Origin: Thermoproteota archaeon
GTDB taxonomy: Archaea > Thermoproteota > Bathyarchaeia > Bathyarchaeales > JAYEKF01
Assembly: GCA_034660895.1 (NCBI GenBank)
Contig: JAYEKF010000013.1
Span: forward strand, 1 to 48,211
Direction of reading: 5' to 3'
Length of the DNA: 48,211 nt
Shown: positions 3,126-38,725 of the stretch, in pieces
Layout of the letters: every line of letters starts with the position of its first letter
Position numbering within the stretch: position 1 is the stretch's first letter
The notes under the pieces: model-generated
What the model was told of the DNA's origin: nothing
Database searches by the model: none
The model's input: the letters and a program-made list of their open reading frames with translations, nothing else
Made by a program: the position numbers and the translations under genes

Positions 3126-3698
3126 GTGGGTGCTAAACTGGGAGGGGGGAAAGAATACGAGTCAGTGAATTTTGATGTAAACGTAAAACTGGAGGAAAAG
3201 GAACGAAAAACAAGGGAAAGAGAAATATACTTTGTACTTTCCGTCCAAACGAAACCCAGCGTTGCCAAATTCAAGGTTGAAGGAACCGCAATGCTAGCTG
3301 GAGCAGACCCCGAAATCGAAAAAATGTTGGAGACGGACCCCGAAACCAAGATTCCCAGAATACTGCATAAAATATATCAACATGTTTTCACCGCTCTCTT
3401 CCTATCTGCCTCTATTATTCAAACACCTCATCCACCACCTAACCTCCTATTTTCCGCGGAACAAAACAAACCAGCCTCACCTACCTTGGAGCCCACGGTG
3501 GAGGTTGAAACGCCAACAACACCCGTGCAAGCGGAAACCAGCCCCACTGTACAAAATGAAAAAACTGCAGAGACGGTAACAACACCGGAAGCGGAGAGCC
3601 AATCTCAACAAAACGAGCAGAAGCCACGTCTGACCGCGCTGGAACACTCAAAAGCAACAACCGCAAATGAAACAACATCACCAAAAGCTGAAACTTAA
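3126..3698 (+). CDS. hypothetical protein with a Pro/Thr/Glu/Gln-rich low-complexity C-terminal tail
   Basis: 190-aa ORF with a GTG start. A ~100-aa globular N-terminal part is followed by PTLEPTVEVETPTTPVQAETSPTVQNEKTAETVTTPEAESQSQQNEQ. An in-frame stop at 3054 excludes a longer N-terminus. Confidence 0.45.
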   Translation: MGAKLGGGKEYESVNFDVNVKLEEKERKTREREIYFVLSVQTKPSVAKFKVEGTAMLAGADPEIEKMLETDPETKIPRILHKIYQHVFTALFLSASIIQTPHPPPNLLFSAEQNKPASPTLEPTVEVETPTTPVQAETSPTVQNEKTAETVTTPEAESQSQQNEQKPRLTALEHSKATTANETTSPKAET

Positions 3699-8093: not shown

Positions 8094-8802
8094 CTATACT
8101 CGATGCCCATACTTTCCAGTCAATGGTACAAACGCCACTCCACCCAAATTCTCCTGACTAATTTTCCCACTCTCCCCCTTCCTCACCCGCACCAGACTTT
8201 GAAAAAAGTAGCTTCCACCCACCGGAATAACCAAAACCCCGCCTTTTTTCAGTTGCTCTATCAAAGGCTTAGGAACCTCAGGAGCCGCAGCAGTCACAAG
8301 AATCCGGTCAAAAGGGGCTTCCTCCACATAGCCCATTGAACCGTCTCCGCAAATCACAGTCACACGGTCTTCGAAACCCGCCTGAGCAATGTTTTCCCTA
8401 GCCCGCTCCGCCAACCTAGAAACAATTTCCACTGTGTGCACGTGACCCCACTTCATTCTAGGCACGTCGGTAGGCGCCACAATCTCCGCCACCGTGCAAG
8501 CGTGCCAACCTGAACCTGCTCCTACTTCTAAAACGCGATGTCCCACCTCCAATTCTAAGGCTTCATTCATGATTGAAACCATGTTTCGCCCGGCTAGTCG
8601 CTTTGGATTAGCCGTGAGGCGCAGAAACTGTTTGTCCATAGCCTATTGGAAGCGGGGAATCCACTGTTGCATAAGACTTCGCGTGTTTCGGAACAAACAG
8701 GTCGCGGCGAACCAAACGCATACCCCGAATCACACTGGGAGAACGAAGAATTCCCCCACGGACTAGTCTGTCAACTAAACGTTTCCAAGCCTGTTCATTC
8801 AC
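8094..8802 (-). CDS. pcm: protein-L-isoaspartate O-methyltransferase; reading frame interrupted by a 31-nt insert (about 8584-8615)
   Basis: Two track ORFs in different frames. 8608..8802 ends ...PLPIGYGQTVSAPHG*. 8094..8639 continues ...MVSIMNEALELEVGHRVLEVGAGSGW...VTAAAPEVPKPLIEQLKKGGVLVIPVG. The conserved PIMT block GQT(V/I)SAPHMVAIM is cut exactly between SAPH and MV. Removing 31 nt gives one 225-codon ORF. Confidence 0.85.
8584..8615 (-). other. candidate bulge-helix-bulge (BHB) intron inside pcm
   Basis: Minus-strand RNA reads CUG-CGCC-UCA-CGGCUA-AUCCAAAGCGAC-UAGCCG-GGCG-AAA-CAUGG. This is a 4-bp central helix CGCC/GGCG flanked by the 3-nt bulges UCA and AAA, with a 6-bp inner helix CGGCUA/UAGCCG. 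Cleavage after bulge nt 2 (or 3) removes 31 nt and gives GCG CCU CAC AUG GUU = APHMV. Confidence 0.45.
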
Positions 8803-14501: not shown

Positions 14502-14598
14502 CGGGCCCGAGGGGAATTGAACCCCTGACCTGCGGGTTAAGAGCCTCAACCTAGCTGTGCAGCTAGTCCGCCGCTCTACCTTGCTAAGCTACGGGCCC
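14502..14598 (-). tRNA. tRNA-Lys(CUU) with a 23-nt intron at non-canonical position 30/31
   Basis: Hand-folded from GGGCCCG-UA-GCUU-AGCAAGGUA-GAGC-G-GCGG[ACUAGCUGCACAGCUAGGUUGAG]G-CUCUUAA-CCCGC-AGGUC-AGGGG-UUCAAUU-CCCCU-CGGGCCC-G. The intron forms a BHB: central helix CGGC/GUUG, bulges GGA and AGG, inner helix CUAGCU/AGCUAG. CCA is not encoded. Confidence 0.9.
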
Positions 14599-14677
14599 AT
14601 CACATAATTTTGAGAACAGCCACCCTAATATGTTTCGTTACGTAATCCTATTTAAATTACGGTAGAAGGGACACAGT

Positions 14678-15478
14678 TTGGGCGAACTCGTGTTCATAGG
14701 CTTAGGATTGCACGATGAGAAAGATGTTTCACTTCGAGGAATACAAGAAATGAAAACTGCAGACCAGATTTTCGCGGAAGTTTACACAAGTCTAATGCCT
14801 GCATTATCAATTGAAAAACTGGAAAAAAAAGTTGAAAAGAAGATTTTGGTAGTTTCAAGACGGTTTTTAGAAGAAGAAGGCGGACAGCCAATTCTACAAG
14901 AAGCAAAGGAAGGAAAAGCGGTTTTTTTGGTTCCAGGCGACCCGTTGATTGCTACCACTCATGTGGATTTACGGATTCGCGCAGAAAAAGAAGGAATAAA
15001 AACGCGTGTTGTGCATGGAGCGTCTATCCTTTCAGCCGTCATCGGTTTGTCAGGTTTACAAAACTACAAGTATGGCAGAAGCGTAACTATACCGTTCCCC
15101 ACAAACGGGTTCATCCCTGAAACGCCTTACTCGGTGATTAAACAAAACAAGAAACTGGGGCTTCACACCCTATGCTTCTTGGACATCAAAGTCGAGGAAA
15201 AACGGTGCATGACTATTAAACAAGGATTACAAACGCTTTTACAAGTAGAAAAAAGGAAAAAACAAAAAATACTCACATCAGACACTCTGGTTGTAGGGGT
15301 TGCCCGAGCTGGGTCGGACAATCCAGTGGTCAAAGCTGGTTACTTAGAAAAACTGGTAAACTACGACTTCGGCGCTCCCCCTCACACGCTGGTTTTCCCC
15401 GGTAAACTTCACTTTATGGAGGCTGAGGCGCTTGTCGGTTTGGCGGGGGCTCCGAAAGAAATCGTAGAGACACCTTGA
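14678..15478 (+). CDS. dph5: diphthine synthase
   Basis: 266 aa. FIGLGLHDEKDVSLRG, FLVPGDPLIATTH and a tetrapyrrole-methylase-like fold. The start is TTG 14678 or GTG 14690. Confidence 0.92.
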   Translation: MGELVFIGLGLHDEKDVSLRGIQEMKTADQIFAEVYTSLMPALSIEKLEKKVEKKILVVSRRFLEEEGGQPILQEAKEGKAVFLVPGDPLIATTHVDLRIRAEKEGIKTRVVHGASILSAVIGLSGLQNYKYGRSVTIPFPTNGFIPETPYSVIKQNKKLGLHTLCFLDIKVEEKRCMTIKQGLQTLLQVEKRKKQKILTSDTLVVGVARAGSDNPVVKAGYLEKLVNYDFGAPPHTLVFPGKLHFMEAEALVGLAGAPKEIVETP

Positions 15479-20635: not shown

Positions 20636-23428
20636 TTGCGTTTTCCTGAAAGCGAGTATCACGTCCCATTCTTTGACGAGTACGGGTACGTTAGAAAGTT
20701 GTGTCCGAAGTGCGGAGGATATTTTTGGACGCAAAACCCGGAGCAGAAGACTTGTGGAGAATCTACCTCGCATGGCTGCGCACCACTAACTTTTATTAAT
20801 AATTCCCCTACACATCGCCGCTATACTTTACAGGAGATGCGGGAGGCGTTTCTATCTTTTTTTGAAAAGCACGGACATGAAAGAATTCAACCGTATCCTG
20901 TGGTGGCTCGGTGGAGAGGTGACTTGTACTTAACCCACGCCAGCATCATCAACTTTCAACCGTACGTTACGAACGGAATTATTCCTCCACCGGCTAATCC
21001 TTTGGTGATAAGTCAACCCTGCATACGACTAGTGGACGTGGATGATGTGGGGCCCACATTTGGTCGACACTTAACTATTTTTGAGATGGGCGGTCATCAC
21101 GCCTTCAACTATCCGGATAAAGAGGTTTACTGGAAGGACCAAACTGTCCGCTATCATCACCAGTTTATCACAGAAGAGTTAGGGGTAAAATCTGAACAAG
21201 TTGTTTACAAGGAGGATGTATGGTCTGGAGGGGGAAACGCTGGACCAGATTTGGAGACCGTGGTTCGAGGGCTGGAACTTGCCACACTCGTGTTTATGAA
21301 GTTTAAGGTGGTTAACAGCGAGTTTATTGAGTTGCCCATACGAACCGTGGACACAGGCTACGGAATAGAACGGTACACTTGGCTCTCACAAGGCTCGGTG
21401 AGTTGTTTCCACACGCTGTACAGCCCAATTTTAGATAAGATTTCCAAGATGGCGGGAATCAGCCAAGTTGAAGACGATTTGTTGGCGAAAGCGGCGGAAC
21501 TATCGGGTGTGATGGAGTTAGAGAAAACGGCGGACCGCAGGGAAGCTCGGAGGAAAGTTGCAGAGCAAATGGGAATGGAAGTGAAGGAGTTAACCAAGTT
21601 GTTGTCGCCCATAGAAAACGTGTTTGCCGTTGCCGACCACACTAAATGTTTAACGTTTATGCTCGCTGAGGGAGTGGTGCCTTCCAACATGGGTGAAGGA
21701 TATCTGGCGCGGCTGATGATTCGACGAACCCACCGACTGCTTCGGCTGCTCGGCGTTGAGGAAAAACTGCTGGACATTATTGACATGCAAATCGGCTTTT
21801 GGTCTCCAGATTTTCCACGTTTAAAGAAAATGCGCGAGGAAATCTTAGAGATTCTTTCCGTGGAACAGGACAAGTTTCAGGAAACTCTGAAGCGTGGGCG
21901 TTCTCTGGTTAAACGAATCATCGGAAAATCAAAAGAGAAAGGTGCACCTCAAATTTTGAATGAAAGATTGGTTGAACTTTACGACTCGCATGGGCTTCCA
22001 CCCGAATTTGTTCAGGAAACAGCGGAACAGGAAAATGTGAAAGTGATTGTGCCTGAAAACTTCTATCGGATGGTAGCTGAACGGCACATGCAGGCGCCCT
22101 CGCAACGAGAAGACGAAACCGTGAAGACATTGGAAAACCAAGTTTACGACCTCCCACAAACAAAAATGCTCTATTACGAAAATCCCTACCTTTCCAAGTT
22201 TGAAGCAAAAGTTCTGCAAGTTTTAGATGAGCAGATGATGGTTTTAGAAAAAACCGCGTTTTACCCAGAGGGGGGAGGACAACCCGCAGACAAAGGCTAC
22301 TTCACGTTTGATGGAAATCGGTCGGAAGTGGTGAATGTCCAAAAAGTTGGGAAAGTGATTGTTCACAAGCTGAAGGGTGAGATGCCAAAAAAAGGAGATA
22401 AAGTGGAGGGAAAAATTGATTGGAGGCAACGCAGTATTCTAATGAAACAGCACACTGCAACTCATGTTTTAATGGGCGCCGCACGCCGCGTGCTAGGCGA
22501 ACACGTTTGGCAAGCCGGCGCACAGAAAGGAGTAGAACACTCAAGATTAGACATCTCACACTTTCGAAGATTGACACTTGAGGAAACACAAAAGATTGAA
22601 ACCTTAGCAAATCAAGCCGTAACGCGGAACATACCAGTAGAAACATCTTGGATGCCGCGGGGAGAAGCTGAAAAACGGTATGGTTTCCGACTTTATCAGG
22701 GAGGAGCGGTACCCGGCAAGGAAATTCGCGTTGTAAAAATAGGCGACTGGGATGTGGAAGCTTGTGCAGGAACCCACGTGCGGAACACTGGAGAAATCGG
22801 GTTCATCAAAGTTGTCCACACCGAAAGAGTGCAAGACGGTGTAGAGCGACTCATTTTCAGCGCAGGTCTTCCAGCTCTGAAATCCGTGCAGGAAAGTGAC
22901 CGGTTACTTTGGAAGCTTTCGGAAGCTTTGAATGCCCCGCGAGAAAAGATTGTTAAAACTGCAGAACGACTCGTGAGGGAGTGGAAAGAAGCACGAAAAG
23001 AAAAGGAACGTCTTATCAAAAAAATTGCTCAGGAAAGTTTGAAGCATACAGACATGATGAAAGCTGTGGCAACAAAGCTGATTGACAATGTGAATTTTTC
23101 GGAGGGAGAGTTCAAGCCCGCCGATGTTGACCTTATGATTCAAACAGCCAACGAGCTGGTAAAAAAAGACTCTACAGTTGTCGCTGTATTTTACGGAATT
23201 AAAGACAAAACTGTTAGATTTGTGGTCGTGGCTGGGGCGGATGCAGTAAACCGTGGCGTTAACGCTGGCAAAATCGCTGAACAAATGGCATCCATAGTTG
23301 GTGGTGGAGGCGGTGGGAGACCAGATTTCGCTCAAGGAGGCGGAACAAAAACCGATAAGGTGCCCAAGGCATTGCAGAAGGCGGAACAAACGATAAGAAA
23401 GCAGGTTGGAACAAGCGCAAGAAATTAA
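20636..23428 (+). CDS. alaS: alanine--tRNA ligase (archaeal type)
   Basis: 930 aa with a TTG start. N-terminal Zn-binding CPKCGGYFWT, an editing-domain HTATH...CAGTHV motif and a C-terminal DHHA1-like GGGGGGRPDFAQGGG. Confidence 0.95.
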   Translation: MRFPESEYHVPFFDEYGYVRKLCPKCGGYFWTQNPEQKTCGESTSHGCAPLTFINNSPTHRRYTLQEMREAFLSFFEKHGHERIQPYPVVARWRGDLYLTHASIINFQPYVTNGIIPPPANPLVISQPCIRLVDVDDVGPTFGRHLTIFEMGGHHAFNYPDKEVYWKDQTVRYHHQFITEELGVKSEQVVYKEDVWSGGGNAGPDLETVVRGLELATLVFMKFKVVNSEFIELPIRTVDTGYGIERYTWLSQGSVSCFHTLYSPILDKISKMAGISQVEDDLLAKAAELSGVMELEKTADRREARRKVAEQMGMEVKELTKLLSPIENVFAVADHTKCLTFMLAEGVVPSNMGEGYLARLMIRRTHRLLRLLGVEEKLLDIIDMQIGFWSPDFPRLKKMREEILEILSVEQDKFQETLKRGRSLVKRIIGKSKEKGAPQILNERLVELYDSHGLPPEFVQETAEQENVKVIVPENFYRMVAERHMQAPSQREDETVKTLENQVYDLPQTKMLYYENPYLSKFEAKVLQVLDEQMMVLEKTAFYPEGGGQPADKGYFTFDGNRSEVVNVQKVGKVIVHKLKGEMPKKGDKVEGKIDWRQRSILMKQHTATHVLMGAARRVLGEHVWQAGAQKGVEHSRLDISHFRRLTLEETQKIETLANQAVTRNIPVETSWMPRGEAEKRYGFRLYQGGAVPGKEIRVVKIGDWDVEACAGTHVRNTGEIGFIKVVHTERVQDGVERLIFSAGLPALKSVQESDRLLWKLSEALNAPREKIVKTAERLVREWKEARKEKERLIKKIAQESLKHTDMMKAVATKLIDNVNFSEGEFKPADVDLMIQTANELVKKDSTVVAVFYGIKDKTVRFVVVAGADAVNRGVNAGKIAEQMASIVGGGGGGRPDFAQGGGTKTDKVPKALQKAEQTIRKQVGTSARN

Positions 23429-23534
23429 AGCAACCCTTTACAACTATACTATGTGGTGCGAAAATTGAGGAATCGTTTCCTCTTCAAAGAATAACCAAAC
23501 CGTTAATAAGTACCAGAATAGTTCAGAATTTTTC

Positions 23535-26511: not shown

Positions 26512-26622
26512 GGGCCCGTGGCGCAGCATGGATTTCTCCCACCAGAAAGCGCGTCGGCCTTCTAATTGGATGACAAAGGGGATAGCCGAAGATCCGGGGT
26601 TCAAATCCCCGCGGGCCCGCCA
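26512..26622 (+). tRNA. tRNA-Arg(UCU) with a canonical 19-nt anticodon-loop intron (37/38), a 16-nt D-loop insert, and encoded CCA
   Basis: GGGCCCG-UG-GCGC-AGCAUGGA[UUUCUCCCACCAGAAA]GCGC-G-UCGGC-CUUCUA[AUUGGAUGACAAAGGGGAU]A-GCCGA-AGAUC-CGGGG-UUCAAAU-CCCCG-CGGGCCC-G-CCA. The anticodon intron shows a BHB (CUUC/GGGG helix, bulges UAA and AUA). The D-loop insert is a hairpin for which I could not find a clean BHB. Confidence 0.85.
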
Positions 26623-37804: not shown

Positions 37805-38725
37805 TTAAGGAGACACAACGCCGGGAACCCTCGGAAACGGCACAGCATCCCAAACATTTTCTAAGCCACAAACCCACCTGGTTAGGCGTTCCACCCCAAT
37901 TCCGAAGCCAGCTGAGGGAAGAACACCATCTTTAAGCATGCTCAGATACCAACTGTACTCCGCCGGGTCTTCACCTGTCAACCTCATTCGCTTAACCACA
38001 TCCTTGTAAGTGTGCTCCCTCTCGCCGCCTGAAACCGCCTCACCGAACCCCTCGGGATAGATAAGGTCGAAATCTCGTAGAACACCTGGCCGTTCTGGGT
38101 CTTCTCGGTCGTAAAATCCTCGGGCGGTGAGCGGATAATCGGTGATGAAGAAAGGTTCATGAAACATAGCGGATACAGCTTTTTCTTCCTCCCAAGAAAA
38201 CTCCTTTCCATGTTCCACGATGAATCCTTCGGAGTTTAACAGTTCCACAGCCTCTTGATAGGTCATCCGTTTGAACGGGGTCTTAGGCGCCTTCAACATT
38301 CTTTCCAGTTTTTCCAGTTCCACCCCGCACTTCCGCCTTATTTGCCTGCAAACGTGCTGAACCAGCCGTTCCACCAACTTCATCATGTCGTGGTAGATTA
38401 CATGAGTTTGCTCCACATCAACCTGCCGAAACTCCGCGAGGTGCCTCCTAGTGGTTAGAGACTCCACGGGCTCCAACCGTATGTTGGGTGAAAACGCAAA
38501 AATCTTTTCTAGGTTTGTAGCGGCCATTTGTTTGTAAAGTATGATGCTGCTCATGAGCTTAAACCGAGCGCCATAGTAGTTGATAGTGACCTGTCGTGCA
38601 CCACGTATCCCTGGATCAGTTACTGGTCCGATGATGGGTGGTAAGATTTCTATGAATCCTTCTCCTCGCAGGAATGTTTGGACGGCGGAGAGAATTTCAT
38701 CCTGAACCTTCAGAACGCTCTTCAT
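37805..38725 (-). CDS. asnA: class II aaRS-like catalytic core without an anticodon-binding domain (archaeal asparagine synthetase A-like)
   Basis: 306 aa with motif 2 RRHLAEFRQVDVE and motif 3 GFGIGVERLTRWVCG. The N-terminus starts right at the catalytic core (KVQDEILSAVQTFLRGEGFIEI). Confidence 0.7.
   Translation of the reverse strand: MKSVLKVQDEILSAVQTFLRGEGFIEILPPIIGPVTDPGIRGARQVTINYYGARFKLMSSIILYKQMAATNLEKIFAFSPNIRLEPVESLTTRRHLAEFRQVDVEQTHVIYHDMMKLVERLVQHVCRQIRRKCGVELEKLERMLKAPKTPFKRMTYQEAVELLNSEGFIVEHGKEFSWEEEKAVSAMFHEPFFITDYPLTARGFYDREDPERPGVLRDFDLIYPEGFGEAVSGGEREHTYKDVVKRMRLTGEDPAEYSWYLSMLKDGVLPSAGFGIGVERLTRWVCGLENVWDAVPFPRVPGVVSP

Follow-up and report, generated by a model that had tools for sequence, protein, structure and literature searches.

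The protein-L-isoaspartate O-methyltransferase (PIMT) gene pcm of a Bathyarchaeia archaeon is interrupted by 31 nt that very likely represent an archaeal endonuclease-type intron of the bulge-helix-bulge (BHB) class, situated within the coding sequence and predicted to be cut by the splicing endonuclease EndA and joined by the ligase RtcB. The gene is found on the 48,211-nt contig JAYEKF010000013.1 of a 'Thermoproteota archaeon' metagenome-assembled genome, which at its full length is referred to here as the window, and all pcm coordinates refer to its minus strand. The best protein matches of the contig are Bathyarchaeia, a class that is uncultured, abundant and found worldwide, and the contig also carries archaeal 16S rRNA, RNase P RNA and housekeeping genes. 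A preliminary description of the window had proposed an endonuclease-spliced BHB intron in pcm. This proposal is supported by the recurrence of the insert in relatives, an invariant central helix and a covarying inner helix, from which we infer the splicing itself.

A 31-nt insert with BHB geometry splits the pcm reading frame

Without splicing, pcm exon 1 starts at a GTG codon at 8802 and reads ...PLPIGYGQTVSAPHG*, while a second frame continues with MVSIMNEALELEVG... until a stop at 8094. The split between SAPH and MV put forward in the preliminary description is borne out by the two reading frames, with 31 extra nucleotides at 8615..8585 separating ...GQTVSAPH from MVSIMNE.... In the NCBI annotation, part of exon 2 is represented by a 158-aa 'methyltransferase domain-containing protein' (P0011). 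The features of the interrupted gene are as follows.

8616..8802, minus strand: pcm exon 1, ending ...GCG CCU C, the final C being the first base of the His codon
8585..8615, minus strand: putative intron of 31 nt, ACGGCUAAUCCAAAGCGACUAGCCGGGCGAA, whose removal restores the frame and which has homologous 28-36-nt inserts elsewhere
8094..8584, minus strand: pcm exon 2, beginning AC AUG GUU, stop codon included
8618..8621, minus strand: 5' strand of the central helix (H), CGCC, formed by positions 2-3 of the Ala codon and positions 1-2 of the Pro codon
8587..8590, minus strand: 3' strand of H, GGCG, inside the intron
8615..8617, minus strand: 5' bulge UCA, 3 nt, predicted cut C8616/A8615
8584..8586, minus strand: 3' bulge AAA, 3 nt, predicted cut A8585/A8584
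8591..8614, minus strand: inner hairpin (h'), CGGCUA (8614-8609) with UAGCCG (8596-8591), a perfect 6 bp with a 12-nt loop

The BHB shape had been described as a 4-bp H, two 3-nt bulges and a perfect 6-bp inner helix, and this is the layout found: two 3-nt bulges oppose each other across the 4-bp helix and the inner helix closes the 5' bulge. The RNAfold centroid agrees, reproducing H, a 3-nt bulge and the inner helix. The rule suggested at the outset, a cut after bulge nucleotide 2, leads to the anticipated open reading frame (ORF), with removal of the 31 nt leaving 678 nt that encode 225 aa. The product covers positions 4-208 of the 210 positions of Pfam PCMT (PF01135) in a single stretch (E 5.5e-61) and aligns without gaps to the P. 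furiosus PIMT 1JG1, with GQTVSAPHMV identical over the junction. Due to an AC repeat, the alternative intron register 8613..8583 gives an identical spliced product. The in-silico junction, GCG CCN C|AC AUG, is identical to what intronless orthologues read without a break.

In the proposed mechanism, the pre-mRNA would fold locally so that the exon sequence CGCC (Ala-Pro codons) and the intron sequence GGCG form the 4-bp central helix, with a 3-nt bulge on each strand and the 6-bp intron hairpin closing the motif. EndA would cut after the second nucleotide of each bulge (C8616|A8615 and A8585|A8584). An RtcB-type ligase would then join ...GCG CCU C to AC AUG GUU..., remaking the His codon and yielding an mRNA for the normal 225-aa PIMT. 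The excised 31-mer would probably be circularised like other archaeal BHB introns. The choice of EndA and RtcB as acting enzymes, like the occurrence of cleavage and ligation, is a prediction from sequence.

The insert recurs at the identical codon in many Bathyarchaeia

We scanned GTDB with one genome per species and took the best 80 pcm loci, a set reaching down to bacterial matches at 44% identity. Eight Bathyarchaeia species (L029, L031, L033, L034, L035, L037, L039 and L040) carry an insert at the identical codon. This represents 8 of the 38 species-representative genomes of the clade; in 30 close relatives that share the SAPHMVSIMNE context the gene is uninterrupted and reads GCN CCN CAY AUG. 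Metagenome contigs were scanned with a pattern that consisted of the 3' half of the central helix together with the beginning of exon 2, the insert being otherwise free in sequence and length. At least 120 stretches matched, at least 118 of them being pcm with the insert. The comparison set used throughout comprises 126 parsed sequences, namely the window, the eight species genomes and 117 metagenome contigs among the matches listed, and contains 117 distinct inner sequences from many independent projects. An alignment of orthologues, as advised in the preliminary description, thereby adds at least 125 further inserts at the identical site, and relatives with a translated in-frame insertion or with decayed helices were not found in it.

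Insert lengths vary between 28 and 36 nt, with 28 nt in 2 sequences, 29 nt in 10, 30 nt in 16, 31 nt in 51, 32 nt in 37, 33 nt in 6, 35 nt in 3 and 36 nt in 1 of the 126. Divided by three, these lengths leave remainders of 0, 1 and 2 in 23, 53 and 50 sequences, respectively. Read unspliced, every one of the 126 runs into a stop, and this holds also for the 23 in which the length is divisible by three. Given the three frame classes and the stops, translation through the insert is excluded, as is skipping it by a fixed frameshift. The length pattern is what would be expected for an RNA element removed at structure-defined points. A group I or group II intron or an intein was considered and rejected, the inserts being 28-36 nt long, two thirds of them not a multiple of three and all containing or causing stops; Rfam reports nothing at the site.

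Translational recoding, with the ribosome bypassing the insert in the manner of phage T4 gene 60 or shifting frame on an uncut mRNA, is a very improbable account of these sequences. The stable hairpin and the stop soon after the break do resemble a bypass element, and a subset of sequences with a 5' bulge ACA followed by U and a 3' bulge ACA has CAU before the gap and CAC before the AUG. However, the triplet before the AUG is a His codon in just 21 of 126 sequences, the others having AAC (71, among them the window), GAC (25) or UAC (9), and the presence of all three frame classes excludes a fixed +1 or -1 shift. Moreover, the conserved features are exactly those of an endonuclease substrate.

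One Bathyarchaeia-type intronless pcm (L045, CAWDEY010000014.1, ~3140-3185) shows a 1-nt frameshift ~20 nt upstream of the intron site. Its contig is filed under an 'uncultured Nitrospira sp.' metagenome-assembled genome (MAG) and probably represents a mis-binned contig or a sequencing error.

The inner helix covaries and the RNA motif constrains synonymous sites

Base pairs were counted in a fixed-register alignment of 121 distinct sequences with N-padded loops. The inner helix, which the search pattern had left free, shows changes on both sides at all nine pairs tested. It contains 295 compensatory cells compared with 96±13 after shuffling, and none of 500 shuffles reaches the observed value. 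Of all cells, 81% are paired, a share that drops to 20-47% once partners are shifted by 1-3 columns. Pairing reaches 90-98% in the first six inner pairs, which comprise up to six pair types. In this fixed register the inner helix starts exactly 3 nt past CGCC and ends directly at GGCG. RNAalifold likewise recovers the central helix, a 3-nt bulge and the inner helix.

The CGCC strand of H is invariant (126/126) and all four H pairs are formed in each of the 121 distinct sequences. The 5' bulge occurs as ACA, ACU, UCU, UCA or ACG. The 3' bulge has the form A-N-A with a free middle base (A in 71 sequences, G in 25, C in 21 and U in 9). For Ala, every one of the 126 intron-bearing genes has GCG, whose third base takes part in the one H pair left free, while GCA, GCG, GCT and GCC all occur in intronless orthologues. 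The 5' bulge opens with the third position of the Pro codon, which is only A or U in the presence of the intron, whereas all four bases are found in intronless genes. The freezing of these Ala and Pro synonymous sites indicates that the RNA motif constrains them.

These features also bear on the idea of a split gene, in which the insert would be a spacer and an N-terminal fragment of ~64-75 aa and a C-terminal fragment of 158 aa would be translated separately and assemble non-covalently. Such an arrangement would fit the upstream-frame stop that each insert supplies or causes, the AUG at which exon 2 starts and the protein of its own (P0011) that NCBI annotates for the downstream ORF. Yet a spacer needs neither an invariant 4-bp helix nor exact 3-nt bulges, a covarying hairpin or frozen synonymous sites. 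The AUG encodes the invariant SAPHM Met that intronless PIMTs possess as well and is not a new start, and it is preceded by GGCG and a bulge with a variable middle base, not by a conserved Shine-Dalgarno-like sequence. The backbone would moreover be broken within the motif that is best conserved in the fold. We consider a split gene quite unlikely and an excised intron by far the better explanation.

Both pcm exons are under purifying selection

Complete spliced ORFs could be reconstructed for 105 sequences, most of them 223-232 aa in length. Among 224 pairs of intron-bearing genes, exon 1 has a ratio of nonsynonymous to synonymous substitution rates (dN/dS) of 0.16 and exon 2 one of 0.09, values that are approximate with dS near saturation. 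Both exons are under purifying selection. No second pcm locus was found in the eight intron-bearing assemblies among the best 80 GTDB loci, and the interrupted pcm appears to be the sole copy within the limits of MAG completeness.

The preliminary description had left room for a pseudogene or an assembly artefact, which from this contig alone could not be excluded. Purifying selection and recurrence in many independent assemblies now exclude it: the insert is found at one site in 126 sequences, the flanking ORFs are intact, dN/dS is 0.09-0.16 and the helices covary. Any residual probability of a pseudogene, a sequencing error or an assembly artefact is minute.

In a neighbor-joining tree of 154 PIMTs, the intron-bearing genes are located at the base of a Bathyarchaeia clade characterized by the sequence 'MVSIMNEAL', with 22 intronless genes interleaved. 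PIMTs of more distant Bathyarchaeia, Asgard archaea and euryarchaea in the tree are all intronless. The tree is based on a 225-aa protein and has very short internal branches, so that events are not countable on it. A single gain near the base of this large Bathyarchaeia clade, followed by several precise losses, is the probable history of the intron. One gain and several precise losses have also been proposed for the cbf5 intron (PMC2738675).

Comparative evidence, not the shape of the motif, decides the case

Using a purpose-written scanner, we found ~140 loose BHB shapes in the window, counting both strands. Because such shapes are common in the window, a single sequence represents weak evidence. 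The fold z-score at the pcm site is only -1.6. When the motif is required to have the quality of that in pcm (four Watson-Crick pairs in H, an inner helix of at least 6 and an outer helix of at least 2), 30 motifs are found in the window, corresponding to 2.6e-6 per (position, length) pair. The chance of finding a motif of this quality in the exact frame-repairing register is ~1e-5, counting the three registers that are equivalent owing to the AC repeat. It is the comparative evidence and not shape alone that decides the case.

A relaxed scan of the single window for other interrupted genes returned 127 candidates and was too noisy. When 1.2 Mb of related contigs were scanned blindly for BHB-shaped, ORF-fusing inserts, pcm was recovered in 91 loci, and besides pcm no other BHB-insert site recurred in three or more loci. 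This blind scan is a specificity control. Among the genes neighboring pcm, the same recurrence scan over 1.2 Mb found no second example.

tRNA introns on the same contig follow the same cutting rule

Two tRNA genes of the contig contain BHB introns. The tRNA-Lys(CUU) gene (14502-14598, minus strand) has a BHB motif in which H is CGGC/GUUG and the inner and outer helices measure 6 and 4 bp, respectively. Its intron of 23 nt (14545-14567) is located at the non-canonical position 30/31 in the anticodon stem, and cutting after bulge nucleotide 2 results in a perfect GCGGG/CCCGC anticodon stem. ARAGORN with default settings reports zero tRNAs. With the -i option it finds tRNA-Lys at a junction leaving an A·C mismatch, which is worse than the junction given by the BHB rule. 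The tRNA-Arg(UCU) gene (26512-26622, plus strand) carries a 19-nt intron (26565-26583) at position 37/38 with H = CUUC/GGGG; it lies below the Rfam gathering threshold and is missed by ARAGORN. Both junctions follow from a cut after bulge nucleotide 2, in line with the initial claim that these introns obey the rule applied to pcm. The presence of tRNA BHB introns on the contig indicates that BHB splicing takes place in this organism, also at a non-canonical position. Where archaea have been characterised, non-canonical intron positions go together with broad-specificity endonucleases (PMC5829648, PMC12397907).

The D-loop of tRNA-Arg (26525..26548) is 24 nt long, which suggests a second very short intron.

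The pcm motif is of the relaxed type with a very weak outer helix

A number of observations weigh against an EndA-spliced intron. The outer helix that closes the 3' bulge in the canonical hBHBh' motif is almost absent and amounts to 1-2 bp, the outer positions consisting of one invariant G-C pair, a U-A pair next to it in 40 of 121 sequences, and beyond these a mismatch followed by two G·U pairs. The RNAalifold consensus fold contains no adjacent exon-exon helix, and endonucleases of narrow specificity would be expected to cut the 3' site poorly. The central helix is conserved without covariation, with three of the four bases of its 3' strand preset by the metagenome search pattern and no variation in its exon strand because the Ala-Pro codons constrain it. 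Three introns (L151, L152 and L199) have an irregular register beside the 5' bulge, with a 2-nt bulge or an internal loop in place of the first inner pairs; these could be substrate variants, copies in decay or sequencing errors. Neither EndA nor RtcB was found among the 30 ORFs of the window covered by Pfam scans, or in 1.2 Mb of loci searched by tblastn with an unverified M. jannaschii EndA query. Finally, large protein searches, including one with the spliced L096 protein, returned no full-length protein more than 88% identical to a spliced product, and an exact look-up of nine spliced proteins in a collection of 15 billion sequences found none of them and no cDNA-like contig. The absence of cDNA-like matches is uninformative on splicing.

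The weak outer helix had been acknowledged in the preliminary description. It is borne out and is common to all 126 sequences and not particular to the window. The pcm motif is of the relaxed HBh' or bulge-helix-loop-like type. Relaxed motifs of this type are substrates only for broad-specificity enzymes (PMC12397907, PMC5829648), and the cbf5 motif has likewise been described as relaxed (PMC10485636).

The missing EndA and RtcB genes and the 3' site without a proper outer helix could also point to removal of the insert by other enzymes, or to a structured element with another role in an inactive pcm. There is little to recommend either possibility. The two-bulge arrangement with 4-bp spacing is specific to EndA substrates and common to the tRNA introns on the contig, and 28-36 nt is far below the size of group I or II ribozymes. 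An inactive gene is contradicted by the purifying selection on both exons.

A second exon-exon helix could lie further out. In the minimum free energy (MFE) fold of the window sequence, 8656-8640 is paired with 8562-8542, enclosing the intron motif. The inferred arms of this distal helix are:

8640..8656, minus strand: 5'-exon arm, CCCGCUUCCAAUAGGCU, predicted from the window MFE fold
8542..8562, minus strand: 3'-exon arm, AGCCUUAGAAUUGGAGGUGGG, predicted from the window MFE fold

The duplex formed by the exon flanks has a median ΔG of -32.3 kcal/mol in 121 intron-bearing sequences compared with -25.1 kcal/mol in 30 intronless ones (Mann-Whitney p ~3e-7, uncorrected for phylogeny). In 117 intron-bearing sequences, pairing amounts to 80-97% for the core pairs GCUUCCAAUUGG/CCAAUUGGAAGU and a GGGC/GCCC helix, versus 40-83% in the 30 intronless ones, and the differences in pairing are located at synonymous positions. 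The distal helix shows conservation and no true covariation, and this conservation is partly due to conserved peptides. It is suggestive only that a distal exon-exon helix ~20 nt away may tether the exons and compensate for the weak outer helix.

The putative pcm intron and other spliceosome-independent introns

The literature on the cbf5 intron reportedly includes Watanabe 2002 and Yoshinari 2006. The preliminary description had regarded cbf5 as the only known endonuclease-spliced mRNA. This view stands for coding sequences, where cbf5 has been the sole known case since 2002, and falls for mRNAs at large with the BHB intron in the 5' untranslated region (UTR) of HVO_1309 in Haloferax (PMC7714728, PMC10485636). 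Until that case was reported, mRNA BHB introns were known from cbf5 alone (PMC7714728), and a 2023 review speaks of two or more genes in archaea being spliced, with more probably undiscovered (PMC10485636). EndA-dependent splicing has precedents in both the cbf5 pre-mRNA and the HVO_1309 5' UTR (PMC2738675, PMC7714728, PMC10485636). Full-text searches found no literature linking isoaspartyl methyltransferase or Bathyarchaeia with mRNA BHB introns. Judged by its sequence features, pcm is very probably the second known archaeal protein-coding sequence with an intron of the tRNA-splicing type. Both the gene and the lineage are new in this respect, and the comparative evidence is unusually rich.

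The hosts of the cbf5 intron are Desulfurococcales and Sulfolobales (Yokobori 2009, PMC2738675). Both cbf5 and pcm contain short, frame-breaking inserts in the coding sequence that are bounded by a relaxed BHB-like motif. Both belong to lineages with non-canonical tRNA introns, both introns are patchily distributed in a way that suggests one gain and precise losses, and gene callers mis-annotate both genes as two ORFs or a frameshift. In contrast, cbf5 is a pseudouridine synthase and pcm a protein-repair methyltransferase in Bathyarchaeia, and the two introns are unrelated in sequence. The evidence also differs: splicing of cbf5 was demonstrated by reverse transcription PCR and EndA cleavage, whereas the case for the pcm intron comes from covariation among more than 100 natural variants. 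With pcm as its host gene and Bathyarchaeia as its host organisms, the present insert falls outside the cbf5 family while its predicted mechanism is of the same class.

HVO_1309 of Haloferax volcanii resembles pcm in that the intron resides in an mRNA, and it is a splicing-endonuclease substrate both in vivo and in vitro. Its intron is located in the untranslated leader and does not interrupt a reading frame, and its host is a euryarchaeon with an α2-type enzyme. The BHB introns of archaeal tRNAs and rRNAs have in common with pcm the 4-bp helix, the opposed 3-nt bulges and the cut after bulge nucleotide 2, predicted in the case of pcm. They are also similar in size (19-23 nt for the tRNA introns of the contig, 28-36 nt for pcm), and pcm is set apart from tRNA introns by an mRNA host, an exon strand of H that encodes Ala-Pro and the near absence of the outer helix, which in tRNAs is the anticodon stem. 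The eukaryotic XBP1/HAC1 introns, processed by IRE1 and RtcB, are similar to that of pcm in being spliceosome-independent, very short (26 nt in XBP1) and frame-changing within a coding sequence, with an RtcB-type ligase presumably acting in both systems. XBP1/HAC1, however, relies on the IRE1 nuclease and a twin stem-loop motif and represents a regulated stress switch, and the likeness to pcm is one of analogy only.

The more than 100 natural variants of the pcm intron amount to a mutational dataset on what a relaxed BHB motif needs, namely an invariant 4-bp helix, an A or U as first bulge base, a free middle base and a covarying hairpin. The gene also offers a second, independent system in which intron gain and precise loss in archaeal mRNAs can be followed. 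For annotation, the consequence is that intron-bearing pcm genes are now filed as truncated 'methyltransferase domain-containing' ORFs; the combination of BHB shape, ORF fusion and recurrence used as a scan here is applicable to all archaeal genomes. More speculative, and in our view rather unlikely, are three further notions. The intron may be a control point that ties PIMT output to EndA/RtcB activity, as an archaeal counterpart of XBP1/HAC1, or the distal helix, maintained by selection at synonymous sites, may be a new recognition or tethering element that replaces the outer helix, and Bathyarchaeia may carry further mRNA introns in genes beyond the few sampled. If the distal helix were a recognition element, the known substrate rules of archaeal splicing endonucleases would be extended.

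Other observations in the window

Two further candidates in the window were rejected. A candidate insert whose removal would fuse AlaRS and LeuRS across 23389-23482 proved to be an ordinary intergenic spacer between two complete genes. A strong BHB-like match at 38154-38218 (minus strand) has no BHB fold, and the ORF at this place, similar to aminoacyl-tRNA synthetases, is uninterrupted. This ORF (37805..38725, minus strand, 306 aa) encodes a class-II aminoacyl-tRNA synthetase catalytic domain without an anticodon-binding domain, contains a palindrome at 38154..38218 and may be an AsnA-like paralogue. A BHB-like hairpin is also present at 14641..14717 (plus strand), with an inner helix of 9 bp and 77 nt between the predicted cuts. 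It overlaps the predicted start of a tetrapyrrole-methylase ORF (14678..15478) and could represent a chance occurrence or a leader element.

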